From a virus: a DNA stretch of 31,495 nt. Each line of letters starts with the position of its first letter. Position 1 is the stretch's first letter. Positions 11,402 through 31,495 of the stretch are shown here, one piece after another. The stretch lies in UHGV virus genome UHGV-0019118; one strand, 5' to 3'. The position numbers were made by a program, and so were the translations under genes. The notes under the pieces were generated by a model, which saw nothing but the letters and a program-made list of their open reading frames with translations, did no database searches and was not told where the DNA came from.

Positions 11402-12265
11402 ATGGAAGAATCTAAAAGAATACGCCAATTAAAAGAAAACCTCATAAAGGAACTACCTTTCTTTCCAAATGAAAAATCAATACGCACTGAACTAGAAAAT
11501 CAAAGTTTAAATGGGGTTTTAATCGCTTACCTCCACTGGAAAACAAGAATTGTGCCGACCCGCAGAAGGAGAGTTCATATATATCCAGAGGTAACGAGCG
11601 ATAAAAGATGGAAAGAACTAAAACTTGGTATTCATGGGTTACTGGATAAGGTCAGAAAAGGTGAAGACTTATACCCTCATCTTTCATTGCGCGCACATAA
11701 GTATGGCTACACTCCTGTTGAAAGAATTCGTAATGGAGATGCTGATTCATGGGAAGACAAAGATCAGTTATTAAATACGAAAGGTTTTCATCATTTTCAT
11801 TTGAGCATGAATATTCAAAGTACAGGCTTGGCCGAAAGGACAAATAATGTTCTTTTTGCCTTCGTTTCTCGCGACCAGTTTCATGCTGTGGGGATATTTG
11901 ATCATAGTGTATTTGATAAACCCGATAGTTTAAATGGCATGACTGAGGAACGTGAAAGAATGTGGACCCTGCATGAAAAATACATCACATTCGGAATGAA
12001 AGCTGGCACAGTGTATATAAACAATCTGATAACAGCATCCGGGCATCCTGTAAATCTTATCATGCTCGCCGATCGTTATGCTGCAATCATCCGAGAATAT
12101 GACCAGAAGGCGGAAGACAGAATTTTTGTAAATGAGCTTTATGCTCAAAGCCCACTTCCCTCTCCAGAAAGGTTTAAATTTGAGTGGCGCATAGAGGGTT
12201 TGGATCTTGTTCTTTTTGATAAAAAAAACAGAGTGGCCTTTAACGTCTACAAAGCTCACATTTAA
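11402..12265 (+). CDS. Hypothetical protein, AT-rich cargo gene (moron) between V and S
   Basis: 287-aa ORF on the strand opposite to all flanking late genes; visibly AT-rich; AGGA 7 nt upstream of ATG; TATAAT at about 11383-11388; strong hairpin directly downstream. Confidence 0.6.
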   Translation: MEESKRIRQLKENLIKELPFFPNEKSIRTELENQSLNGVLIAYLHWKTRIVPTRRRRVHIYPEVTSDKRWKELKLGIHGLLDKVRKGEDLYPHLSLRAHKYGYTPVERIRNGDADSWEDKDQLLNTKGFHHFHLSMNIQSTGLAERTNNVLFAFVSRDQFHAVGIFDHSVFDKPDSLNGMTEERERMWTLHEKYITFGMKAGTVYINNLITASGHPVNLIMLADRYAAIIREYDQKAEDRIFVNELYAQSPLPSPERFKFEWRIEGLDLVLFDKKNRVAFNVYKAHI

Positions 12266-18257: not shown

Positions 18258-20027
18258 ATGACCATTTCCACCGATACAACCTTGTTGCATGACCCGCGAC
18301 GGCAGGCATCGCTGCTTTACTGGCAGGGTTTTTCCGTGCCACAGATTGCCGAAATGCTGCAGGTCAAGCGCCCGACCGTGCAGAGCTGGAAGCAGCGCGA
18401 CGGCTGGGACGGCATCGCGCCGATTTCCCGCGTTGAAAGCAGCCTTGAGGCCAGGCTGATTCAGCTCATCGCCAAGCCGCAAAAGACAGGGGGGGATTTC
18501 AAAGAGATTGACCTGCTCGGACGGCAGATTGAACGGTTGGCGCGAGTCAACCGCTACAGCCAGACCGGCAACGAAGCCGACCTTAACCCCAACGTCGCCA
18601 ACCGCAACAAAGGGGAGCGCAAAAAGCCGAAAAAGAATTTTTTCAGCGACGAGGCTATCGATAAACTAGAGGAATTATTTTTCGACCAGTCTTTCGAGTA
18701 CCAGTTGCAGTGGTACCGCGCAGGACTGGAGCACCGTATTCGTGACATTCTCAAATCCCGCCAGATTGGCGCGACATTCTATTTCTCCCGCGAGGCACTG
18801 CTGCGCGCACTCAAAACCGGCCATAACCAGATATTTTTATCAGCCAGTAAAACGCAGGCTTACGTGTTCCGCGAATACATCATCCAGTTTGCGCGACTGG
18901 TCGACGTTGACCTGACTGGCGACCCGATTGTCATCGGTAACAACGGCGCAAAACTGATTTTTCTCGGTACCAATTCCAACACCGCGCAGAGCCATAACGG
19001 CGATCTGTATGTCGATGAAATATTCTGGATCCCGAATTTTCAGAAACTGCGCAAAGTCGCCTCGGGCATGGCCTCGCAAAAGCACCTGCGCTCGACCTAT
19101 TTTTCGACACCTTCCACGCTGGCGCACGGCGCTTACCCCTTCTGGTCTGGCGAGCTGTTCAACAAGGGGCGCAGCCGGATTGCCGACCGCATCGAAATCG
19201 ACATCAGTCACAGCGCGCTCGCCGGTGGCCAGCTCTGCGACGATGGCCAGTGGCGGCAGATTGTCACCATTGAGGACGCCCTTGCGGGTGGCTGCACCCT
19301 GTTCGACCTCGACCAGCTCAAACGCGAAAACAGTGATGAGGACTTTAAGAACCTGTTTATGTGCGAGTTTGTCGACGATAAAGCGTCGGTATTCCCGTTC
19401 GAGGAGCTGCAGCGCTGCATGGTCGATGTGATGGAGGAATGGGAGGACTTTGCCCCGTTCGCCGACCATCCGTTCGGCTCTCGTCCTGTCTGGATTGGCT
19501 ACGACCCGTCACACACCGGCGACAGTGCCGGGTGCGTCGTGCTCGCGCCGCCGGTGGTCTCTGGTGGCAAGTTCCGCATGCTGGAGCGCCACCAGTGGAA
19601 AGGCATGGACTTTGCCGCGCAGGCCGAGGGCATACGCAAACTGACCGAGAAATACAACGTCGAATACATCGGCATAGACGCAACCGGCCTCGGTCTCGGC
19701 GTGTTCCAGTTGGTGCGCTCATTCTACCCGGCGGCACGCGGCATCCGTTACACACCTGAGATGAAAACCGCGATGGTGCTCAAGGCAAAAGACACCATTC
19801 GCCGCGGCTGTCTGGAGTACGACGCCGGGGCGACCGACGTCACGCAGTCGTTTATGTCCATCCGCAAAACCATGACCAGCAGCGGGCGCAGCGCCACCTA
19901 CGAGGCCAGCCGCACCGAGGAAGCCAGTCACGCCGATATCGCATGGGCGACCATGCACGCCCTGTTAAACGAACCGCTTTCCGCCGGTAGCGGCATGCAG
20001 CCTAAATCCATTCTGGAGTTTAATTAA
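18258..20027 (+). CDS. P: Terminase large (ATPase) subunit P
   Basis: 589 aa; N-terminus MTISTDTTLLHDPRRQASLLYWQGFSVPQIAEMLQVKRPTVQSWKQRDGWD resembles P2 gpP. Confidence 0.9.
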   Translation: MTISTDTTLLHDPRRQASLLYWQGFSVPQIAEMLQVKRPTVQSWKQRDGWDGIAPISRVESSLEARLIQLIAKPQKTGGDFKEIDLLGRQIERLARVNRYSQTGNEADLNPNVANRNKGERKKPKKNFFSDEAIDKLEELFFDQSFEYQLQWYRAGLEHRIRDILKSRQIGATFYFSREALLRALKTGHNQIFLSASKTQAYVFREYIIQFARLVDVDLTGDPIVIGNNGAKLIFLGTNSNTAQSHNGDLYVDEIFWIPNFQKLRKVASGMASQKHLRSTYFSTPSTLAHGAYPFWSGELFNKGRSRIADRIEIDISHSALAGGQLCDDGQWRQIVTIEDALAGGCTLFDLDQLKRENSDEDFKNLFMCEFVDDKASVFPFEELQRCMVDVMEEWEDFAPFADHPFGSRPVWIGYDPSHTGDSAGCVVLAPPVVSGGKFRMLERHQWKGMDFAAQAEGIRKLTEKYNVEYIGIDATGLGLGVFQLVRSFYPAARGIRYTPEMKTAMVLKAKDTIRRGCLEYDAGATDVTQSFMSIRKTMTSSGRSATYEASRTEEASHADIAWATMHALLNEPLSAGSGMQPKSILEFN

Positions 20028-20773
20028 TGAAAAATAACGTTTTCTCACAAAGCCAGATTCAGGCAATGGCCGATATTCTGCACAATGACAGCTTTGACTA
20101 TCAGTCAACATGGTTGCGTGTCGGGAAACTCAATATCGACCGCAGCATCACCAAATCGCGCCAGACTGGCGCAACGCAGCTCTTTAGCCGTGAGGCGCTG
20201 CTTGATGCGCTGACAACGGGCGATAACCAGGTCTGGTTTGCTCACACCGTTGAGCATGCGCGGGTGGCGCTGATGTACATGCATAACCTTTCGGCGCGCG
20301 TCGGTGTCAGCCTTACGAGCAACGGCCACAGCCTGCAGCTCGACGACGGTGCGGTTATCAGCTTTGTCGGTGAGGAATCCCATTGCGCCGCGCTGGCGGG
20401 TAACGTCTACCTTGATGAGTTCGGATGGTTCAGTAACCCGCTAAGAGCGGCAAAAGTCGCGGCGGCTATCGCCTGCCATAAACGCCACAATCTGACGATG
20501 TTCACCTCGCCCTCTGATAATTATGACGCATTCCGGGTGTGGAACGGCACGTTCCGCAATCACCGACCGTCACCGCTAATTAATACCGGCGACAGCGTAT
20601 TTTGCACAGATGGTGTCTGGCGTCAGTCGGTCACTCTGGATGCAGCATGCCAGCGTGGATGCAATCTTTTTGCACCTGAGGAAATTAAACGCGAATACAG
20701 CGACGATAATTATCGTCTGCTGTTTGGCTGCGACTGGTCTTTCGCTGTTGCAGCGGGTGAGGTGGCAGCATGA
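20027..20773 (+). CDS. Paralogue of the terminase large subunit covering only its central ATPase region
   Basis: 248 aa; aligns by eye to P residues about 125-372 (KSRQTGATQLFSREALLDALTTGDNQ vs KSRQIGATFYFSREALLRALKTGHNQ; VYLDEFGWFSNP vs LYVDEIFWIPNF; DGVWRQSVTLDAA..GCNLF vs DGQWRQIVTIEDA..GCTLF); start overlaps the P stop (TAATG) and stop overlaps the Q start (ATGA). Confidence 0.6.
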   Translation: MKNNVFSQSQIQAMADILHNDSFDYQSTWLRVGKLNIDRSITKSRQTGATQLFSREALLDALTTGDNQVWFAHTVEHARVALMYMHNLSARVGVSLTSNGHSLQLDDGAVISFVGEESHCAALAGNVYLDEFGWFSNPLRAAKVAAAIACHKRHNLTMFTSPSDNYDAFRVWNGTFRNHRPSPLINTGDSVFCTDGVWRQSVTLDAACQRGCNLFAPEEIKREYSDDNYRLLFGCDWSFAVAAGEVAA

Positions 20774-21792
20774 GCAAGCGCAAGCCACGCAAAACAGTCG
20801 CCACGACCGCCAGCGCCCCGCAAAAAATGGAGGCGTTCACCTTCGGCGAGCCGGTGCCGGTGCTCGACAAGCGCGACATTCTGGATTACGTCGAGTGCAT
20901 CAGTAACGGCAAATGGTACGAGCCGCCGGTCAGCTTCTCCGGGCTGGCAAAGAGCCTGCGCTCTGCTGTACATCACAGCTCACCGATTTACGTTAAGCGC
21001 AACGTGCTCGCGAGCACCTACATTCCGCACCCGCTGTTATCCCGTCAGGATTTCAGCCGCTTTGCACTCGACTATCTTGTTTTTGGTAACGCCTTTCTTG
21101 AGCAGCGCCACAGCGTTACCGGCCAGCTAATCAAGCTACTGGCCTCACCGGCCAAATACACCCGGCGCGGGGTCGACGATTCGATTTTCTGGTTTGTGGA
21201 AAACTTCACTCTACCGCATGAGTTCGCGCCTGATACCGTGTTTCACCTGCTGGAGCCCGATATTAATCAGGAAATTTACGGCCTGCCCGAATATCTCAGC
21301 GCGCTTAATTCCGCCTGGCTGAATGAATCCGCGACGCTGTTCCGCCGCAAGTATTACCAGAACGGCGCGCACGCGGGTTACATCATGTATGTGACCGACC
21401 CGGCGCAAAGTGCGACCGACGTCGAATCGCTGCGCGAGGCGATGCGCAATTCGAAAGGTCTCGGCAACTTTAAGAACCTGTTTTTCTACGCCCCCGGCGG
21501 AAAACCGGACGGCATCAAAATCGTGCCACTGAGCGAGGTCGCTACAAAGGATGACTTTTTCAACATCAAGAAAGCCAGTGCCGCCGACCTGATGGACGCA
21601 CACCGCGTACCGTTCCAGCTCATGGGCGGCAAGCCCGAGAATATCGGCTCACTCGGCGACGTTGAGAAGGTGGCAAAGGTATTCGTGCGTAACGAGCTGT
21701 CACCCCTGCAGGACAGGTTCAGGGAGGTAAACGACTGGCTCGGCATGGAGGTCATCAGGTTCAAAGAGTACACCCTCGACAACCCGGAATAA
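20770..21792 (+). CDS. Q: Portal protein Q
   Basis: 340 aa, MSKRKPRKT... N-terminus, last gene before cos as in P2. Confidence 0.85.
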   Translation: MSKRKPRKTVATTASAPQKMEAFTFGEPVPVLDKRDILDYVECISNGKWYEPPVSFSGLAKSLRSAVHHSSPIYVKRNVLASTYIPHPLLSRQDFSRFALDYLVFGNAFLEQRHSVTGQLIKLLASPAKYTRRGVDDSIFWFVENFTLPHEFAPDTVFHLLEPDINQEIYGLPEYLSALNSAWLNESATLFRRKYYQNGAHAGYIMYVTDPAQSATDVESLREAMRNSKGLGNFKNLFFYAPGGKPDGIKIVPLSEVATKDDFFNIKKASAADLMDAHRVPFQLMGGKPENIGSLGDVEKVAKVFVRNELSPLQDRFREVNDWLGMEVIRFKEYTLDNPE

Positions 21793-21839: not shown

Positions 21840-23075
21840 TTAGGCTTTGCTATTTATCATTCTGATATAACTAGGCATGCGAGGATCTGAAATTTTATAT
21901 ACCCCTCTGGCAGCCTTTGTAAGGATCGCTCCTTTATCAGCCCTAGTAAAACGCCCAATATAGTTACTCATGTGATAGTTACTCAATAAAACCCCCGTAT
22001 CTTCTCGAATTTGGGCAATCCATTCTTGAATGGTAAATTTATTATCTTTGAATTTTGCTGCTGCATAAAGTATTGATGGATAAATATCAGTTCTGGATGA
22101 AGTAACTGCGTTCTCATAGTCTCTTTTAAGTTGTCCCTCGGTGTTTATTACAGCTCGCTTCAAAGCTTCAGGAAGAATGTCGGAATTTACTTCGCTTTTA
22201 CCAGATGATAAAGCTATATCTGCAGATTCCTTTCCTATAAGATGTGTAAAATATGGAAAACCATTGCTAATTTCAACTATAGAGTTTTTAACTTCACGAC
22301 TAAATGTTATACCCAAGCCATGCTCGCCAGTCTCAATTATTTCATGTAAATATTTATCTTCAATTCGAGAGAGTTGAATTTCATGGAGGCATCTGTTCAC
22401 AGAAGGATGACCTGCTATCAACGAAGCACCGTCACTGGAAATGCCAACTAACAAAATCTTCAAAGGACTATTGGAATCACTAAGTTGTTTAACAAATTCA
22501 GCGACATCATGCTTAACGTCATCACTGACAACATCAAATTCATCTATTAAAAGTATTGCATTCAATTCTTCAAGCGCAAAACAGGCTTTACTTGGAGTAA
22601 GGTCTTCTTTTTCTATCGTGATTTTCTCTTCGGCAGAAACGTCCGCTCTAAATAATTTCAAAACATTAAGCCCAATACCTGCTTTTTTGGTAGTCTCTCT
22701 TTTATTTGCGGCATATTCACTATCAATAAATATAGCTGGCCTTGCAATTATATCTTTGAATTTTGTTTTTTTATCACATCGCACTACAAAAATGTTACTA
22801 GGTAACACACCTTCATTTTTCCCTCCCTCTAAAGTAGATAAGGCGAGCGAGCTTTTCCCAATCCCTCTCTCTCCATAAATCATGCAATGCTTACCATCAG
22901 TAGTTAAGGTGTCGAGGATATGTTCCACCTCGTTATCACGCCCTTTCAAATGGGTAGGTGCCTCAATAGGTTTAGACGGTGTAAAATATAAATCAACATT
23001 TTTAATTTTATTTTTTTTGGCTTTAAAATTACTGAATATGCTGCTGGTAGTTGTCATTTCCGCATCCCATTGCAA
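21840..23075 (-). CDS. Predicted P-loop NTPase (AAA-type ATPase with uncharacterised C-terminal half); AT-rich cargo gene between Q and cos
   Basis: Walker A GERGIGKSSLA and Walker B ILLIDEFDVV; track start is TTG at 23075, more likely ATG at 23055-23057; candidate promoter TTGCAC-N17-TTTAAT just upstream. Confidence 0.65.
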   Translation of the reverse strand: MQWDAEMTTTSSIFSNFKAKKNKIKNVDLYFTPSKPIEAPTHLKGRDNEVEHILDTLTTDGKHCMIYGERGIGKSSLALSTLEGGKNEGVLPSNIFVVRCDKKTKFKDIIARPAIFIDSEYAANKRETTKKAGIGLNVLKLFRADVSAEEKITIEKEDLTPSKACFALEELNAILLIDEFDVVSDDVKHDVAEFVKQLSDSNSPLKILLVGISSDGASLIAGHPSVNRCLHEIQLSRIEDKYLHEIIETGEHGLGITFSREVKNSIVEISNGFPYFTHLIGKESADIALSSGKSEVNSDILPEALKRAVINTEGQLKRDYENAVTSSRTDIYPSILYAAAKFKDNKFTIQEWIAQIREDTGVLLSNYHMSNYIGRFTRADKGAILTKAARGVYKISDPRMPSYIRMINSKA

Positions 23076-24785: not shown

Positions 24786-27008
24786 TTACTCATGTATTGG
24801 TTTTGATGCTTCAGCCATCGCCGCAACACGATTAAGGATTTTCCGAGCTTTAGCCTCATGCGATGGTGCTGCGGAAAATATTTCTCCTTTGGCCGTTCCG
24901 CCTAGCCATTTACCATCAAAACAACTTTTACCACCGGCCATCAGGTGCAGGGCTTCGCCCCGGCTGATATTAATGCCGGTTGTCAGATGTATCTCGTCGA
25001 TAGTTTTAGCTATAGCTGCGTTTTGCTCATCCGTTCCGTGGATGAATTTTCGCCGTGCTGCTGGCTTTTGCTTCCTGAGTCGGTTGGTCAATTCTCGTCT
25101 TTCATGCCGACTCAGTGGTTTTGTTAAATCCAGTATCGGTGGATCGCTTTCGCTTCCCGTACAGTTATTGACAGAACTCCGAGGGACGGCTTTGCCGTCC
25201 TGAAGGTCAACGGCCAAATCAACAGCACGCTTCGGAACAATCTTCCACTGAGTGAGCCGGGTTAAAATCGGGCTTCCTGCACCTATGGAGGAATCGTAGA
25301 CCCCCTTAATACATACCGTTTCCTCACCGTACTGATTAAGCTCGGTACGCGGTTCATACAGTGTGCGCACCTGTAAATCATCGCGACGGACAAACGGCCC
25401 ACCCTGAGCATTAACATAACCAGCCCAGTCACCAGCGTCGGCGGCATCATGGACGGCGGCAAACTCAACGCTCAGACCGTGCGCGGTTTCGGTATCAGCG
25501 AGGCGACGCAACTCACGGTAAACCGTCACCGGCGCACCACCAATAAACTGAAACTGACGGATGTGCCAGCGCGCAGCCCATGCTGAAACGGCGGGGGCTG
25601 TCTCTTTCAGCAGCTCACCGCTTTCATCATCGGTTTCACCATCGAGAGCATAACCGTCGATATTTTTTGAAATGTATTTAGCAACATAGCCGGTTGCGCT
25701 GCCTTTCTCCGGGTCAATGGACTCGGCGTGGAAACGTGCTTTTTTGGATTTATCGCTTTTCAGTTCGTGGCGGTCTTCTTTCCATGCGTATTTACGGACG
25801 ATGGAGCGAACATATTCAACATCTTCCGGCAGCATGAACATCAGCATGTGCCAGTGTGGAGTGCCGTCGTGATGGGGCTCGGCGACACGAATACCGAAAA
25901 TACGGACATCTTCCCGATGTAGTTTGGCACGGATACGCGCCCAGATACCGGTTAGATAGTTTTGCGTGTCAGCCGGGCTGGCACCGCTCCATTTGCTGTT
26001 ACGGTAACCGGCTTTAGTCGTGGCGTGATATTTTGACGGCGCGGTTAGAGTGTAAAACTCACCGACATAACCGAGCTCATTACAGATGTTTTCAAACCCA
26101 CGAATGCGGGTCATGAGCTCACAGCGGCGAATCGCAGGGTTAGCAACTGAGCCATCATATTTTTCAATTAGGCTGATACGGTTGCCGTCTTCGTCTTCGA
26201 GATCCAGACCTTTGAGAAATTCACGAGTGCGGCGCTTTTGTTCACGCCAGTCAGTCACGCAGTTTTTACTCGCGTAAGTGTTTTTTTTCTTACTGACGTT
26301 GCCGACTGCAATTTGCAGGTGTTCGCGCCACGTAGCTGCAACACGGCGCAAACGACCGCGCCACCACCCATCGTTAAACATTTTGGCGATAGCCGGTGCG
26401 ATTTCATCCGCACCGACATATTTTTTTTCAACCCGCTCCCAATGTGGTGGGATAACGTTGAATTGGAGGGAAATAAAGCCAGCACGAATATACCAGGTGT
26501 ACAGCGTTTTAAGCTCGCCGAATCCGTGGTCATTAATGTTGGCAAGTTCACCACGAATGAAATTAGCAATATCAGCGGCCAACAGGTCAACATCAGCGCG
26601 CGACATGTCCGGGAGACGGTTATATCGGGCGACCATATTAACCATGCGTGACGACAGATATTGCATTTGCTGAGTATCAAAATGACTTCCAAAAACAGCG
26701 GTTGATACCTTGCTGTTGATACCAGCGCATTCGTATTTTTTTGCGACCAGTTCAAGACGCGGCAATGCCTTTTTGCAGAAGCTGATTAAAAATGCATTGG
26801 CTCGTTGACTACCCTGATTTTGCTCCAGCACCGCAGCAGTGCGATAAACATCTAACCGCACGCAGTCGGGCTGGAGAGAAAGCACCTTTTTTGCATGCAG
26901 CAAAGCCGCGAACATACGGTCGCGGCGATGCTGTTGCTCATAAGTAAGGTATGGGCTGGAGATTGCCGACCGTGGGATGTTCCACGGATAAGCGAATTGA
27001 ACAGCCAA
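24786..27008 (-). CDS. A: Rolling-circle replication initiator A
   Basis: 740 aa; HUH-type motif HDGTPHWHM and tyrosine motif YVAKYISKNIDGYALD; track start is a TTG, so the true start is uncertain. Confidence 0.85.
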   Translation of the reverse strand: MAVQFAYPWNIPRSAISSPYLTYEQQHRRDRMFAALLHAKKVLSLQPDCVRLDVYRTAAVLEQNQGSQRANAFLISFCKKALPRLELVAKKYECAGINSKVSTAVFGSHFDTQQMQYLSSRMVNMVARYNRLPDMSRADVDLLAADIANFIRGELANINDHGFGELKTLYTWYIRAGFISLQFNVIPPHWERVEKKYVGADEIAPAIAKMFNDGWWRGRLRRVAATWREHLQIAVGNVSKKKNTYASKNCVTDWREQKRRTREFLKGLDLEDEDGNRISLIEKYDGSVANPAIRRCELMTRIRGFENICNELGYVGEFYTLTAPSKYHATTKAGYRNSKWSGASPADTQNYLTGIWARIRAKLHREDVRIFGIRVAEPHHDGTPHWHMLMFMLPEDVEYVRSIVRKYAWKEDRHELKSDKSKKARFHAESIDPEKGSATGYVAKYISKNIDGYALDGETDDESGELLKETAPAVSAWAARWHIRQFQFIGGAPVTVYRELRRLADTETAHGLSVEFAAVHDAADAGDWAGYVNAQGGPFVRRDDLQVRTLYEPRTELNQYGEETVCIKGVYDSSIGAGSPILTRLTQWKIVPKRAVDLAVDLQDGKAVPRSSVNNCTGSESDPPILDLTKPLSRHERRELTNRLRKQKPAARRKFIHGTDEQNAAIAKTIDEIHLTTGINISRGEALHLMAGGKSCFDGKWLGGTAKGEIFSAAPSHEAKARKILNRVAAMAEASKPIHE

Positions 27009-27009
27009 T

Positions 27010-27231
27010 TTATACCCCCCGATAGTGTTTGTTTTTTAGCTCTGCGATTTGCTGGCAGGTTACGCAAAAAGCCACGCCCGGAATCGCAATGCGGCGAGCT
27101 TCCGGGATTGGTGCGTCACATTCCTCGCAAAGAAAACGGGAAGGTGCAGCGATACGGGTGCGTGCGTTGCTGATGTGGCGTTCGCGGTCTTCTTGCTCGC
27201 GCAGTTGTGCTAAATCCATTGCGTCGGCCAT
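27010..27231 (-). CDS. TraR/DksA-family C4 zinc-finger protein
   Basis: 73 aa with CEEC...-N17-...CVTC. Confidence 0.6.
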   Translation of the reverse strand: MADAMDLAQLREQEDRERHISNARTRIAAPSRFLCEECDAPIPEARRIAIPGVAFCVTCQQIAELKNKHYRGV

Positions 27232-27458
27232 TAGTGCAGCTCCTGTGATTCATTCTCAAAGCGGGTTGCTTCACGGCGCAGCAGTTCGGCAGCTTCGGTG
27301 CCGCTCATTCCCTCTCTGGTAATATGGATAGCCAGCGCCTCAAGGCGGATGGAAACAGCGAGCGCGCGGTCTTTACGCTCTTCTTTTTTTGCATCGGTCA
27401 GCAATACGGCCAGCGCATCGCTATCAGTGTTAAAACTACGGATTTCGGTATTACGCAT
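27231..27458 (-). CDS. Hypothetical early protein
   Basis: 75 aa; AGGAG 9 nt upstream of the ATG; 1-nt overlap with the next gene. Confidence 0.4.
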   Translation of the reverse strand: MRNTEIRSFNTDSDALAVLLTDAKKEERKDRALAVSIRLEALAIHITREGMSGTEAAELLRREATRFENESQELH

Positions 27459-27527
27459 AATTAACTCTCCTGATTTCGGGCAATAAGAAGCCCGGCGGGT
27501 TTACGCCAGATAATTAATTGTGATTAA

Positions 27528-27728
27528 TTAGCTATAGCCAAATACAATGGCAGGTTTACTTTTTAATTGGCTGATAATTTCAGCTTTCAGGCCATCCTTA
27601 AACTCTTTGCAGCACTCCCACTCAGGGTCAACGCGAAGTATTGCGCCGTCGCGGGTTTTAATTTCAAAACCGTCTTCCATATTCGGAATCATGGCTCCTA
27701 AAACAATTCTTAATTCATCGCGTGACAT
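27528..27728 (-). CDS. Hypothetical early protein
   Basis: Track ORF starts at a TTG at 27758; likely ATG at 27726-27728 (MSRDELRIVLGAMIPNMEDGFEIK...) with AAGGGA upstream. Confidence 0.35.
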   Translation of the reverse strand: MSRDELRIVLGAMIPNMEDGFEIKTRDGAILRVDPEWECCKEFKDGLKAEIISQLKSKPAIVFGYS

Positions 27729-27942
27729 GCTTAATCCCTTTAATAATAAAGTGGACAATACGAATAATTAAAAAGTCTGACGGCTTCGACTGCTTGGATT
27801 TCAGCCCTTTTAATAATTCGGACTGAGAGCGGCACGGGTGCCAGCGCTTACCATCTTTACCCGCGATCCAGCCGTGACCGTAATGAATACCTGGGCTTTG
27901 CTTAACGAGCAGAGATGCGAGTGAGGGTTCATTTTTCAGCAT
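27715..27942 (-). CDS. Hypothetical early protein
   Basis: Likely ATG at 27940-27942 (MLKNEPSLASLL...) with GAGG upstream; the track start at 27963 is a TTG. Confidence 0.35.
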   Translation of the reverse strand: MLKNEPSLASLLVKQSPGIHYGHGWIAGKDGKRWHPCRSQSELLKGLKSKQSKPSDFLIIRIVHFIIKGIKHVTR

Positions 27943-27949
27943 AAACACC

Positions 27950-28459
27950 TCATACCAAACCAAATGTTGCGCCGATGCCCGTCATGGTATCAACCACGCT
28001 CGACATTGCCGGGTTAGCCTGTAGACGCGCCTGTAACGCCAGCGCCGACAGGGACAACATGCGGATGCCTGCATTAACACTCTCAACCATGCTGTGTTTG
28101 CGGTCAGAGGTCATACGTTCATTTGATACCGCACCGCTCGCCAGTTCGCCGAGTTCACTCATTGCGCGCATCACATAGGACTGCAATTTCTCTTTAGCCA
28201 GCTCATTAACCGGCACGCATGGCAGACAATGTATCTGCGCCAGAAAGCCATCAACGAGGGTTGAGTCTTCGGTCAGGTCAGTCAGCAGCCACAATTCAGG
28301 CGGCGTGAACTGGTGAGGCTGTTCCGGGTTGAGCTTGTTACGTAACGTTTGAACGTTCATACCCGCACGCTCTGCCAGCTTCGCCATGTTGTGACGCTGC
28401 GCAAAAGCCCGGCACGCTTCGTCATAGTGAGGATGTTTGGAAATCTGAAAATCAAACAT
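27950..28459 (-). CDS. cII: 186 CII-like transcriptional regulator
   Basis: 169 aa from the ATG at 28457-28459 (MFDFQISKHPHYDEACRAFAQRHNMAKLAERAGMNVQTLRNKLNPEQ..., helix-turn-helix-like); second gene of the rightward early operon as in 186. Confidence 0.55.
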   Translation of the reverse strand: MFDFQISKHPHYDEACRAFAQRHNMAKLAERAGMNVQTLRNKLNPEQPHQFTPPELWLLTDLTEDSTLVDGFLAQIHCLPCVPVNELAKEKLQSYVMRAMSELGELASGAVSNERMTSDRKHSMVESVNAGIRMLSLSALALQARLQANPAMSSVVDTMTGIGATFGLV

Positions 28460-28491
28460 GGTTAAATTCCCTCTAACTTGCATAATCAAAT

Positions 28492-28863
28492 TCAGTTAAG
28501 AGCGGTGCGCTGGTCAATGTAGCGGCAATCAATCGCTTGCTGGGTTAGTTTGTCGCGCCATGCTTTCACGTTTACGAGGGTGCGGCTTCGTTTACCGACG
28601 TCTTCTTTGTTGGAAAAATCTTTGGTCGGAGCTTTGAGAAGAATGCCGTCATCGAGCCATTGCCAGACTAGACGCTCGCTTACACCTCGAGTGGCGGCGA
28701 AGTCTTTCACAGTCATCGTGTCTGACATAGCGGAGCGAATCATTGTCTGGAGAGCTGGCAGCATGGCGGTAACGATGGCATCAAACTGTGTTGGATCTAA
28801 CAGCACAGTTTGATTTTGTGAGTTTTGCGAGTCGTGCGTCGAGATTGATTTTGCATCTGACAT
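28492..28863 (-). CDS. apl: Apl/Cox-like excisionase and transcriptional regulator
   Basis: First gene divergent from cI; HTH-like segment TMTVKDFAATRGVSERLVWQWLDDGIL; the start may be one of several internal ATGs. Confidence 0.55.
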   Translation of the reverse strand: MSDAKSISTHDSQNSQNQTVLLDPTQFDAIVTAMLPALQTMIRSAMSDTMTVKDFAATRGVSERLVWQWLDDGILLKAPTKDFSNKEDVGKRSRTLVNVKAWRDKLTQQAIDCRYIDQRTALN

Positions 28864-28976
28864 ATCGCATTATCTCCTATTGTTTGAAATGTAGTGCAGT
28901 GGTGTGCATCTTGGTCGATGAATGCCACTTTAAATCGAAAATGAGTTTATGTAAATCGATTTTGAGTGATTGATAA
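28864..28976. promoter_or_regulatory. Lysis/lysogeny switch region (divergent promoters and operators)
   Basis: 113-bp AT-rich spacer between divergent apl and cI with repeated motifs taaatcgaaaatgag / taaatcgattttgag and tgcagtggtgtgca. Confidence 0.5.
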
Positions 28977-29816
28977 ATGAATGATGAAGATTTGAATACG
29001 CAAGATGTGATTGAGCGGATTAGTTCGGCGTATGGTGTCAGCACGCAAAAGGCTTTGGCGGAAGTGCTTGGCGTCCCGTCAAACAGCGTCAGCACTTGGG
29101 TTCAGCGAAACAGTTTTCCAGGCAAAGCCATCATTCAGTGCTCATTAGATACTGGCGCCGATTTAAACTGGCTGCTGACTGGTCAAATTTCAAATTTGAA
29201 TTTGCAAGATTCATCGCCATTGAAAGGAAAGTCACTTTATGACGAGATTTTGGCGAGTGGTGGTAAACCTGTTTTAAGACGCATCCTTGATGCGTATGGT
29301 TTTACAATGCAAAAGGAGCTTGGAGATTTGTTGGATATCTCCTCAGGCACTATCAGCACTTGGGTAAGACGAGATTTCTTCCCCGGTGATGTAGTAGTTA
29401 CTTGTGCTCTTGATACCGGTGTTTCACTGGAATGGTTAGCAACCGGTAAAGGGCAAATGCGAACAAACAGGGAAGCTGTCACATCAGGTTTTTCAATTAA
29501 AAAATCCCGCCTTGAATCTGGTGAGCTTAAGGATGCTGGCGCATGGCACACAGACCCCTCGATGATACCCTCTGATTCAGATGAATTGATTTTTGTCGAA
29601 GGTGTGGGCTCCTCTTGGCTTGTCGACTGTTCGGCTTCGAACATAAGCAATGGGCGTTGGTTAATTGATATCGACGGCGCTCTTGATGTTTTTGATGTGA
29701 TTCGTCTTCCTGGAGGAAAAGTCAGGTTGTCTAATAAAACTGCTGAGTTTGAATGCAATATTTCAGATATCAAGCCTGTCGGGTCTGTAGTTCTTACATT
29801 GGAAAAACACGTATAA
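28977..29816 (+). CDS. cI: 186 CI-like immunity repressor with a duplicated N-terminal DNA-binding domain
   Basis: 279 aa; residues about 12-70 and 100-160 are clear copies of each other (…AYGVSTQKALAEVLGVPSNSVSTWVQRNSFPGKAIIQCSLDTGADLNWLLTGQ vs …AYGFTMQKELGDLLDISSGTISTWVRRDFFPGDVVVTCALDTGVSLEWLATGKGQ); divergent from apl and upstream of int. Confidence 0.75.
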   Translation: MNDEDLNTQDVIERISSAYGVSTQKALAEVLGVPSNSVSTWVQRNSFPGKAIIQCSLDTGADLNWLLTGQISNLNLQDSSPLKGKSLYDEILASGGKPVLRRILDAYGFTMQKELGDLLDISSGTISTWVRRDFFPGDVVVTCALDTGVSLEWLATGKGQMRTNREAVTSGFSIKKSRLESGELKDAGAWHTDPSMIPSDSDELIFVEGVGSSWLVDCSASNISNGRWLIDIDGALDVFDVIRLPGGKVRLSNKTAEFECNISDIKPVGSVVLTLEKHV

Positions 29817-29825
29817 GGAGCTGTA

Positions 29826-30164
29826 ATGAAAAAGTATTTATTAATGATGGTCTGTTTCGCACTTTCTTCATCAGCCTTAGCCGCAGAGAAGTTTAAAGAG
29901 ATTGATAGTAAATCTTTTGGTGATAAATGGCCGCTGACCTTTGAGCATGCAAAAGTATCCTGTGTAAATAGTCACTACGTTTTTGTTTATGACATTGATA
30001 CGGATGAACGCTATCCCTTAAGCGGCATGGCTAAGAACGCCGTCAAGTCTGGAAAAATGGAAGGGCGAGATTTAAAAGAAGTGCTAAAAAAAGACCCTAA
30101 CGATCCATTAGAACGAGCTGATATTGCTCCTGTTTTCAGTGAAGCCATAGCGCTTTGTGAATAA
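29826..30164 (+). CDS. Small secreted protein (signal peptide), AT-rich cargo gene between cI and int
   Basis: MKKYLLMMVCFALSSSALA-AEKF: signal peptide with an Ala-x-Ala cleavage site; two Cys in the mature part; AAGGAG 6 nt upstream of the ATG. Confidence 0.6.
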   Translation: MKKYLLMMVCFALSSSALAAEKFKEIDSKSFGDKWPLTFEHAKVSCVNSHYVFVYDIDTDERYPLSGMAKNAVKSGKMEGRDLKEVLKKDPNDPLERADIAPVFSEAIALCE

Positions 30165-30187
30165 AAAAATTCGGCCTCGGTGTAGCT

Positions 30188-31237
30188 ATGACAGTTAGTA
30201 AGCAAAAAAATGGCAAATGGTTATGCGAGCTCTATCCAAATGGTCGAGAAGGGCGGCGTATACGTCGGCAATTCAATACCAAAGGTGAGGCCGAGGCATT
30301 TGAAGCATTTACCAAAAGCGAGAGTGAAGATAAGCCGTGGCTCGGCAAGAAAGAAGACCGCCGACGCTTAAGCGAGATTATTCAGCTTTGGCACAATTTG
30401 CACGGTCAAGCGTTAGTCGCCAGTAAGTCGAGGTTTGCAAAGCTTCAAATCGTATGTAATGGACTTGGTGACCCGATTGCATCTCGCCTTACCGCGAAAG
30501 ACTGGGCTCATTATCGTGACCGTCGATTACGTGGTGAAATAGACAACGGTTATCATAAAGACCCCTCGAAATGGATCGCCAAACCTATAACCGTCAATCG
30601 CGAACAGCAATACCTAGAAGCAGTGTTTAATGAGCTCCGCCGGTTAGGGGAGTGGAGCCTACCCAATCCACTTGATGGGATTCGAGTATTCAAAGAAGCT
30701 GAGAAAGAAATGTCCTGGCTAACTTTGTCTCAGCTCCCGGAGCTGTTTCGAGCCTGCGAGCAATACGGCAAAGAAGACCTCACCATGATTGTTAAGGTGT
30801 GCCTTGCAACCGGCGCTCGATGGGGGGAGGCGGAGAGATTGACCCGCCCTCAACTTTCTCCATATAAACTGACGTTCACCAAAACCAAAGGTAAGAAGAA
30901 TCGCACAGTTCCTATTCCTAAATGGCTGTACGACGAGTTGTCCGAACGTCAGGGCAGAATGTTTAAACCCTGCTATCAGGAGTTTAAAAAGATGCTCAAA
31001 CTAACGAATATTGAATTGACGGAAGGGCAGAAGACGCACGTTTTGCGTCATACTTTTGGTGCGCATTTTATGATGAACGGCGGGAATATACTGGTACTGC
31101 AGAAAATTCTCGGGCATGCCAATATTCGAGAAACAATGAAGTATGCACACTTTGCTCCTGACCACCTTGAACAAGCTGTAACCCTCAATCCGTTATCGCT
31201 GTATGTTGGCGACAATGTGGCGGCAGAGGTTGCATAA
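30188..31237 (+). CDS. int: Tyrosine integrase
   Basis: 349 aa; C-terminal catalytic region HVLRHTFGAHFMMNGG...LGHANIRETMKYAHF; adjacent to attR. Confidence 0.9.
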   Translation: MTVSKQKNGKWLCELYPNGREGRRIRRQFNTKGEAEAFEAFTKSESEDKPWLGKKEDRRRLSEIIQLWHNLHGQALVASKSRFAKLQIVCNGLGDPIASRLTAKDWAHYRDRRLRGEIDNGYHKDPSKWIAKPITVNREQQYLEAVFNELRRLGEWSLPNPLDGIRVFKEAEKEMSWLTLSQLPELFRACEQYGKEDLTMIVKVCLATGARWGEAERLTRPQLSPYKLTFTKTKGKKNRTVPIPKWLYDELSERQGRMFKPCYQEFKKMLKLTNIELTEGQKTHVLRHTFGAHFMMNGGNILVLQKILGHANIRETMKYAHFAPDHLEQAVTLNPLSLYVGDNVAAEVA

Positions 31238-31318
31238 CACTGCAATTCACTGCATTAAAAATTACTTTAACTAGTTGTTTTATATGGTAAGTGTTTGTTC
31301 GCTGTGGGGTGTTAATAG

Positions 31319-31331
31319 GAGCGTCTTAACT
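31319..31331. repeat. attR core (direct repeat gagcgtcttaact) with the displaced original rplS tail and TAA stop (31332-31334)
   Basis: Exact copy of 64-76; aag agc gtc tta act-type codons continue in frame to ...ERLN*. Confidence 0.7.
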
Positions 31332-31359
31332 AAGATTTCGCTTAAGCGACATCCTGTTA

Positions 31360-31391
31360 AGAAGGGCTGGCCAATTGGCTGGCCCTTTTTT
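31360..31391. terminator. Native bidirectional terminator between rplS and the convergent downstream gene
   Basis: Hairpin around the ggccaattggc palindrome followed by a TTTTTT run. Confidence 0.5.
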
Positions 31392-31408
31392 ATCTGTTTG
31401 CTGGTGTT

Positions 31409-31495
31409 TTAAGGGGTAGTAATCACCACTGCGACGCGGCGGTTCTCGGCGCGGCCCTGGGCGGTCTTGTTACTGGCTATGGGATATTTTTTTCC
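31409..31495 (-). CDS. C-terminus of an OmpA-family peptidoglycan-associated protein (partial; possibly yfiB-like)
   Basis: Minus-strand frame reads ...GKKYPIASNKTAQGRAENRRVAVVITTP* with stop at 31409-31411; NRRV near the C-terminus is typical of OmpA-like domains. Confidence 0.45.
   Translation of the reverse strand, partial: GKKYPIASNKTAQGRAENRRVAVVITTP

Follow-up and report, generated by a model that had tools for sequence, protein, structure and literature searches.

A predicted periplasmic DUF2511/YebY-family protein encoded between the cI repressor and integrase genes of a P2-family prophage of Escherichia coli

The DNA analysed here, referred to as the window, is the whole of virus genome UHGV-0019118 (31,495 nucleotides, nt), a complete P2-family (186/PSP3-type, Peduoviridae) prophage of Escherichia coli. 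The subject is a short gene located between the immunity repressor gene cI and the integrase gene int, which had been picked out from the sequence alone as encoding a small secreted protein of the lysogen (the original prediction). Our analysis strongly supports that the product is a small soluble protein with the DUF2511/YebY fold, predicted to be periplasmic, encoded by the middle gene of a cI-gene-int lysogenic operon. The features of the locus are as follows.

27950-28489, minus strand: cII gene, CP76-type (domain search)
28492-28863, minus strand: gene in the Cox/Apl position, next to the switch region
28864-28976, no strand: divergent switch region between the cox/apl-like gene and cI, assigned by its intergenic position
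28977-29816, plus strand: cI immunity repressor, 186-type, 279 amino acids (PF07022 twice, E=2.8e-54; PF16452, E=2e-22)
29815-29820, plus strand: Shine-Dalgarno sequence AAGGAG of the DUF2511 gene, read from the sequence
29826-30164, plus strand: DUF2511/YebY-family gene, precursor of 112 amino acids (RefSeq WP_032249468.1, 'DUF2511 domain-containing protein')
29826-29882, plus strand: Sec-type signal peptide, residues 1-19 (MKKYLLMMVCFALSSSALA), predicted to be cleaved by signal peptidase I between ALA and AEK
29883-30161, plus strand: predicted mature periplasmic domain, about 93 amino acids, about 10.4 kDa, isoelectric point about 5.2
30188-31237, plus strand: tyrosine integrase, 349 amino acids, last gene of the operon (PF24624 and PF00589)
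64-76 (left, 3' end of rplS) and 31319-31331 (right), no strand: att core of 13 bp, GAGCGTCTTAACT, the longest repeat common to both window ends
31359-31390, plus strand: strong intrinsic terminator, 14-bp stem followed by a T run (terminator scan)

The open reading frame (ORF) was confirmed as claimed, running from an ATG at 29826 to a stop codon included at 30164 on the plus strand and encoding 112 amino acids, in the order cI-gene-int with gaps of 9 nt on the cI side and 23 nt on the int side. The strong Shine-Dalgarno sequence that had been noted is located 5 nt 5' of the ATG; it overlaps the TAA stop codon of cI (29814-29816), which suggests coupled translation. The AT-richness of the gene was also borne out, with a GC content of 39.2% compared to 44.4% for cI, 47.4% for int and 52.6% for the window. 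The repressor has a duplicated N-terminal helix-turn-helix (HTH) domain, the two PF07022 matches, and a C-terminal PF16452 domain, and is annotated as 'phage repressor protein CI' in RefSeq. The 601 bp from 29700 to 30300, covering the end of cI, the whole gene and the start of int, are 100% identical to strain ESBLEC_MG48, where rplS and yfiB flank the prophage and the annotation of the gene reads 'DUF2511 domain-containing protein' (WP_032249468.1).

Co-transcription of the gene with cI, on which the original prediction relied, is suggested by indirect evidence: the tight spacing, the outcome of a site scan and the organisation of two related phages. In a consensus scan, no promoter- or terminator-like site was found on the plus strand between cI, the DUF2511 gene and int; one terminator-like hairpin is located inside cI (29279-29295). 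In phage 186, an int-lacZ fusion serves as a reporter of leftward (lysogenic) transcription, and in the GenBank record of the Vibrio cholerae P2-family phage K139 a PL lysogenic operon is annotated over cI-orf2-glo-int. The switch region (28864-28976) is presumed to hold face-to-face lytic and lysogenic promoters. The consensus scan of this region gave a single sigma-70-like site on the minus strand (28955 to 28927) and picked up no lysogenic promoter, the existence of which we infer from the organisation of 186 and K139. The gene would be transcribed with cI from this lysogenic promoter, and also from the CII-activated establishment promoter, and every lysogen would therefore have the protein in its periplasm.

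For a transcript that continues past int, the terminator at 31359-31390 would be the first on its way, which could give this terminator, the strongest found in the scan, a role in ending the lysogenic transcript. From the position of the att core relative to it, it is probably the displaced native terminator of rplS. A second hairpin with a T run, at about 117-150, just past the rebuilt end of rplS, appears to be supplied by the phage. A scan of 27000-31495 against Rfam and a tRNA scan of the area gave no match.

The guess in the original prediction that the protein could belong to a YebY-like periplasmic family proved correct. It matches Pfam DUF2511 (PF10709) with 57.2 bits against a cut-off of 21 (E=2.3e-15), over profile positions 6-87 of 87, and PHROG 2950 ('unknown function') over its full length (E=4e-47). 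The only sequence relative in the PDB is E. coli YebY (7N0J; phmmer E=1.6e-8). Together with ratios of non-synonymous to synonymous substitution rates (dN/dS) of 0.13-0.20, described below, these matches show that the ORF is far more than a chance reading frame. A search of NCBIfam with the protein gave no match, and a BFVD fold search returned no viral neighbour at E<=0.001.

The structure prediction called for by the original prediction gave a four-stranded antiparallel beta-sheet with flanking helices, as in 7N0J and in MlbQ, a Microbispora protein of the same Pfam family. The AlphaFold (AF2) model was built on an alignment of 66 diverse family members and has a predicted local distance difference test (pLDDT) score of 90.1; the larger part of the domain scores 96 or more and the N-terminal 20 residues, the signal segment, 60-66; a shallow alignment of 14 sequences gave a poor model (pLDDT 62.7) and was replaced. 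Four residues (W35, C46, Y63 and C111) are invariant in the 66-sequence alignment. W35, C46 (29961-29963) and C111 (30156-30158) align with W37, C48 and C113 of YebY and are hallmarks of the family, and the mature protein is probably locked by a C46-C111 disulfide. The two cysteines counted in the original prediction are therefore right for the mature part (C46 and C111) and wrong for the precursor, which has three, the third being C10 in the signal peptide.

The Sec signal peptide that had been claimed was assessed by hand from its n-, h- and c-regions, hydropathy and cleavage site. It has an n-region of MKK, an h-region of ten residues (YLLMMVCFAL, hydropathy peak 2.9) and a c-region of SSSALA before the AE of the mature chain, with Ala at -3 and -1. 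Despite varying sequence, the five allele types of the gene described below all keep this n-h-c layout and a cleavage site between xLA and (A/T)EK. Export by the predicted signal peptide is probable. A lipoprotein reading was rejected since the sequence has no lipobox ([LVI][ASTVI][GAS]C); C10 is preceded by M-M-V, and is missing in allele types C and E and in the type B sequences of the kind found at locus L004.

The gene itself is already known. Besides its RefSeq annotation, it is annotated as gp28/orf28 in phage PSP3, a GenBank entry of several years' standing, and the layout 'YebY homologue between phage CI repressor and recombinase' was remarked on in print in 2021, so that both the entity and its layout are known. 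Copies of the same family (PHROG 2950) are present in PSP3, SEN1, SW9, SI22, Midge, RCIP0057 and vB_EcoM-613R3, annotated as 'DUF2511 domain-containing protein' or, in Midge, 'putative periplasmic protein'. PSP3 gp28 and its orthologues have the same position (cI-gene-int), length, spacing and family as the window gene. Compared to the copies in sequenced phages, the window gene is only 48-58% identical, whereas identity is about 80-92% for the flanking DNA and 91-99% for the integrase protein. A proteomics entry named 'DUF2511 domain-containing protein' (QGA31985) was considered as evidence of expression from a prophage and set aside; we judged it to be chromosomal yebY from its accession order relative to lpp, sodC and fadL.

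To examine conservation, 51 IMG/VR loci were compared together with phage and genome loci, giving 56 loci in the spacing count; a scan of GTDB species representatives gave only two loci, and IMG/VR was used instead. Every one of the 51 IMG/VR loci has the cI-gene-int arrangement. The gene is always 339 nt long across the 56 loci. In nearly all of them, 8-9 nt separate it from cI and 22-24 nt separate it from int, the exceptions being loci with an extra gene, and the 8-9 nt gap to cI is kept in 54 of the 56. The integrase is 91-99.7% identical to that of the window in 47 of the 51 IMG/VR loci and 82-83% identical in the other four. Across the loci, identity to the window is 56-100% for cI and 47-100% for the DUF2511 gene; Cox and cII each fall into two similarity groups in the IMG/VR set.

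The DUF2511 alleles fall into five deep types, between which the mature parts are 51-75% identical. The window allele belongs to type A, the most divergent of the five, in which the C-terminal third departs from the family consensus, having VLKKDPNDPLERA in place of the conserved Trp and the PG-x-K motif found in most members. The possibility that this third was copied from chromosomal yebY was rejected, as the five types are equally far from YebY in both halves and each has 10-13 of 32 identities with YebY in the C-terminal third. Type A is present in 6 of 5426 complete E. coli genomes, while DNA matching at least part of the cI-gene-int junction is present in 66; among the sequenced phages of the phage collection, type A was not found.

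The alleles of DUF2511 combine freely with those of cI, and type A occurs with repressors of 66, 70, 74, 81 and 100% identity to that of the window. In a mosaic allele (L021-L028, 4001-4339), the signal peptide and the first mature residues are type-A-like and the remainder is type-B-like, which points to recombination within the gene as well; for the copies of this allele in E. coli genomes, the alignment to the window is confined to nt 1-240 of the gene. Within each of the five types, dN/dS is 0.13-0.20, which shows that purifying selection acts on the gene; between types, dS is saturated. Positive or diversifying selection could not be demonstrated from these values. The allele types are old, selectively maintained lineages and not demonstrably fast-evolving ones.

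As a separate observation, the type-C allele at L053 (1874-2212) and L054 (3962-4300) ends in ...ALWE instead of ...ALCE, so that the C-terminal disulfide cysteine is lost (C111W). In YebY, the C-terminal disulfide cysteine is needed for the protein to accumulate (PMC8689200).

A profile search of 1.84 billion cluster representatives (50% identity) gave 540 family members, and the genomic context was looked up for 12 of the nearest representatives, from 49% down to about 26% identity. In 11 of the 12, the context is a P2-family phage, and most of the genes are located directly after a phage repressor or another gene of the lysogeny module.

P0016, P0017, P0018, P0019 and P0026: directly after a 186-type CI
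P0020 and P0053: after a short HTH repressor, with gpD, gpU and tape-measure genes nearby
P0024: after a short HTH repressor, on a short contig
P0022: after a WYL/BRCT protein
P0023: placed only by adjoining gpD, gpU and tape-measure genes
P0028: placed only by an Ogr gene nearby
P0030: the only chromosomal case, adjoining frr and uppS

The locus of P0017 (L056/L057, 1-6000) is a heavily degraded prophage remnant in which cI, DUF2511 and a bPH/SHOCT gene are intact. In the stretch examined, an intact int and all structural genes have been lost, leaving an integrase fragment and CP76 and lysis fragments. This remnant recurs in many samples, directly beside a chromosomal copC-copD-yebY operon, and the two DUF2511 copies in its genome are only about 33% identical to each other. 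The slot between cI and int can also carry further cargo. A secreted ORF of 134 amino acids with a signal peptide lies between cI and DUF2511 in L004 (5570-5974) and L029, and had no match in Pfam. A bPH_3 and SHOCT protein of 166-168 amino acids follows DUF2511 in L030 (4355-4861), L031, L032, L035 and L056 (5475-5975), its gene being located between DUF2511 and int in L030-L032 and L035.

It is very unlikely that the protein has no host-level role, being either a passenger linked to cI and int or a protein of the phage cycle, for example in lysis timing or virion release. Phage 186 matched the query only over cII/fil and its record contains no DUF2511 homologue, so that the gene appears dispensable for this type of phage. 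In addition, the gene has no known phenotype, and the L053/L054 allele has dispensed with its disulfide cysteine. A passenger is harder to reconcile with the purifying selection within all five allele types, the invariant length and fixed spacing, the synteny kept down to about 26% identity, and the retention of an intact gene in a remnant without lytic genes.

The only enterobacterial homologue to have been studied experimentally, YebY, acts in copper import, and copper did not feature in the original prediction. In the yobA-yebZ-yebY (AZY) copper-uptake operon, YebY is encoded by the third gene. Experiments located the E. coli protein in the periplasm and showed that it has a Cys48-Cys113 disulfide (PMC8689200). 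Co-expression of YebY with YebZ resulted in lower copper accumulation, for which the authors proposed a 'safety valve' role (PMC11923076). By analogy, the phage protein could restrain copper uptake through the host CopD-type importer YebZ, together with YobA. An extra constitutive copy would lower cytoplasmic copper and may alter the copper-dependent mar response via MarR, which would make the gene a lysogenic-conversion trait. We regard this as possible, if on balance unlikely. The two proteins are true homologues with the same fold, YebY does reduce YebZ-dependent accumulation, and the AZY operon is present in the E. coli hosts. In a rough neighbour-joining tree without branch-support assessment, used only as a hint, the PSP3-like clade and the clade of AZY-linked YebY are sisters, with other phage-linked lineages around both. 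A V-x-SGK loop is common to these two clades and missing in most of the family, and the cI-DUF2511 remnant lies directly beside copC-copD-yebY.

Several observations do not fit with a copper role. The phage protein is only 29-35% identical to E. coli YebY in every allele type, and the phage carries the Y component alone. The arrangement of the AZY operon, in which yebY adjoins copD and is two genes from copC, was not found in the window, where the neighbours are cI and int and the prophage annotation includes no CopC or CopD ORF. Roughly half of the sequences representing the family occur in contexts other than AZY, and the same fold is used in MlbQ, which has been proposed to bind a lantibiotic (PMC8689200); the fold therefore does not dictate a copper role. 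YebY itself purifies metal-free and binds copper weakly, which its authors deem probably non-physiological (PMC8689200). Finally, the strict and ancient linkage to the P2-family lysogeny module and the shuffling of alleles are unlike a housekeeping metal function.

The fold seen in MlbQ also raises the possibility that the protein is an immunity factor or decoy, binding an antibacterial that acts in the periplasm and giving the lysogen a competitive edge. Its target could be a bacteriocin, a microcin, a contact-dependent or type VI secretion system effector, or a tail-associated or endolysin-type muralytic enzyme. A cognate toxin did not come to light, and we give this explanation little chance of being correct.

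The reading that we favour is that the protein is a superinfection-exclusion or envelope-defence factor, expressed in the lysogen and acting in the periplasm. It is held tentatively, with a confidence somewhat short of even. The deep and strict linkage to the repressor, the shuffled alleles, the use of the cI-int interval as a cargo slot and the retention of the gene in a degraded remnant together make exclusion or envelope defence the best guess. As a periplasmic binding protein, it would protect the lysogen at the envelope, most probably by blocking a step of the superinfecting phage that comes after adsorption and before the cytoplasm is reached. The mode of action would be the one expected of the fold, in which a partner is bound or sequestered on the outer face of the inner membrane without catalysis.

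A number of points weigh against exclusion. The positional counterpart with an exclusion phenotype, Glo of phage K139, is not a homologue: homology to DUF2511 was rejected at an hhalign probability of 3.4% and Glo has no Pfam DUF2511 match, which leaves the exclusion reading to stand on position and physical type. The protein matched no defence model of PADLOC-DB 2.0 at E<=0.01, and the literature searched contained no expression or phenotype data for the gene or any phage homologue. The sole functional data for the enterobacterial homologue indicate copper import and not phage exclusion, and the grouping of the phage clade with AZY-linked YebY, together with their common SGK loop, favours a shared partner. 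The diversity of alleles reflects old lineages with saturated dS rather than demonstrated positive selection, and the signal peptide was judged by hand.

A further proposal concerns the root of the family. DUF2511 would be an ancient repressor-linked protein of P2-family prophages, made in all lysogens and serving in superinfection exclusion or envelope defence by binding an inner-membrane partner from the periplasmic side. Chromosomal YebY of the enterobacterial copper-uptake operon would then be a domesticated copy of such a gene or, alternatively, the source of the phage gene. This proposal is speculative and, in our view, rather improbable. If true, it would link the so far unexplained part of YebY as a 'negative regulator' with a blocker of a membrane conduit that came from a phage.

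As the gene is annotated and its position is already in print, it is of little weight as a discovery. The modestly new part is evidence that much of the diversity of DUF2511 consists of a repressor-linked lysogeny-module protein of P2-family prophages with exchangeable alleles. A predicted periplasmic protein of 10 kDa occupies a fixed slot beside the immunity repressor in P2-family prophages of many Enterobacterales, and it is of value in offering inexpensive experimental access to a family without a settled function. If the exclusion reading is true, it would be a soluble exclusion factor of the periplasm with a wide distribution, a kind with very few known examples. If the copper reading is true, it would be a prophage-borne modulator of host copper uptake and of mar-linked antibiotic tolerance. 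Either would inform the function of chromosomal YebY.

Elsewhere in the prophage, further features were observed. A 777-bp insertion (20028-20804), which is missing from the otherwise collinear ESBLEC_MG48 prophage, separates the terminase gene (18258-20027) from the portal gene (20770-21792). It replaces the first 60 or so nt of the portal gene and carries an ORF of 248 amino acids (20027-20773, plus strand) with a Terminase_6N match (E=3.6e-19). Next to the portal gene, a cargo gene on the minus strand (21840-23075), in a region that differs from the ESBLEC_MG48 prophage, encodes a STAND-type NTPase of 411 amino acids (nSTAND1, E=1.5e-8) that weakly matches PDC-S59, a candidate defence family of PADLOC (E=9e-8). 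An ORF of 287 amino acids (11402-12265, plus strand), oriented opposite to the flanking tail and baseplate genes and without a Pfam match, has weak PADLOC matches to PD-T4-7 (E=2e-9) and may be a defence cargo gene.

Among known systems, E. coli YebY has the same fold, with an identity of only 29-31%. It differs in its genetic setting, being encoded in a copper-uptake operon whereas the phage gene lies between the repressor and the integrase. The YebY operon is regulated by copper and FnrS, while the phage gene would use the lysogenic promoter of the prophage and, unlike yebY, exists as several shuffled alleles.

MlbQ, a putative self-resistance lipoprotein for NAI-107 in Microbispora (PDB 2MVO/6QFP), has the same fold and the disulfide in the same place, and like the phage protein it would be a binder, not an enzyme, located outside the cytoplasmic membrane. 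It differs in being a lipid-anchored actinomycete protein with a long linker, encoded in a lantibiotic cluster with ATP-binding cassette transporters, and the identity is about 20%. Lipid anchoring also separates the phage protein from the outer-membrane lipoprotein exclusion factors of the Cor/Llp type, which have a lipobox with a +1 Cys that the phage protein lacks.

The most telling comparison, by position and physical type, is with Glo, a Sec-exported, soluble periplasmic protein of 137 amino acids whose mature chain carries a single cysteine close to either end. The exclusion phenotype of Glo is experimental, whereas exclusion by the phage DUF2511 protein is inferred. Phage exclusion mediated by Glo was reportedly described by Nesper et al. 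(1999, J Bacteriol 181:2902). In the GenBank record of K139, glo is annotated as 'periplasmic protein; involved in phage exclusion', and Glo is cited as a rare soluble periplasmic superinfection-exclusion (Sie) protein. The K139 operon differs in carrying an additional gene, orf2, which encodes a BRCT-domain protein, between cI and glo. As a side observation, a gene for a WYL and BRCT protein (L065, 195-791) precedes a DUF2511 relative, just as orf2 precedes glo; kinship of the two BRCT proteins was rejected, with similarity only at the level of the domain (E=0.11). In layout the two systems agree: K139, too, is a P2-family phage with the gene in the cI-int interval of its lysogenic operon, directly 5' of int.

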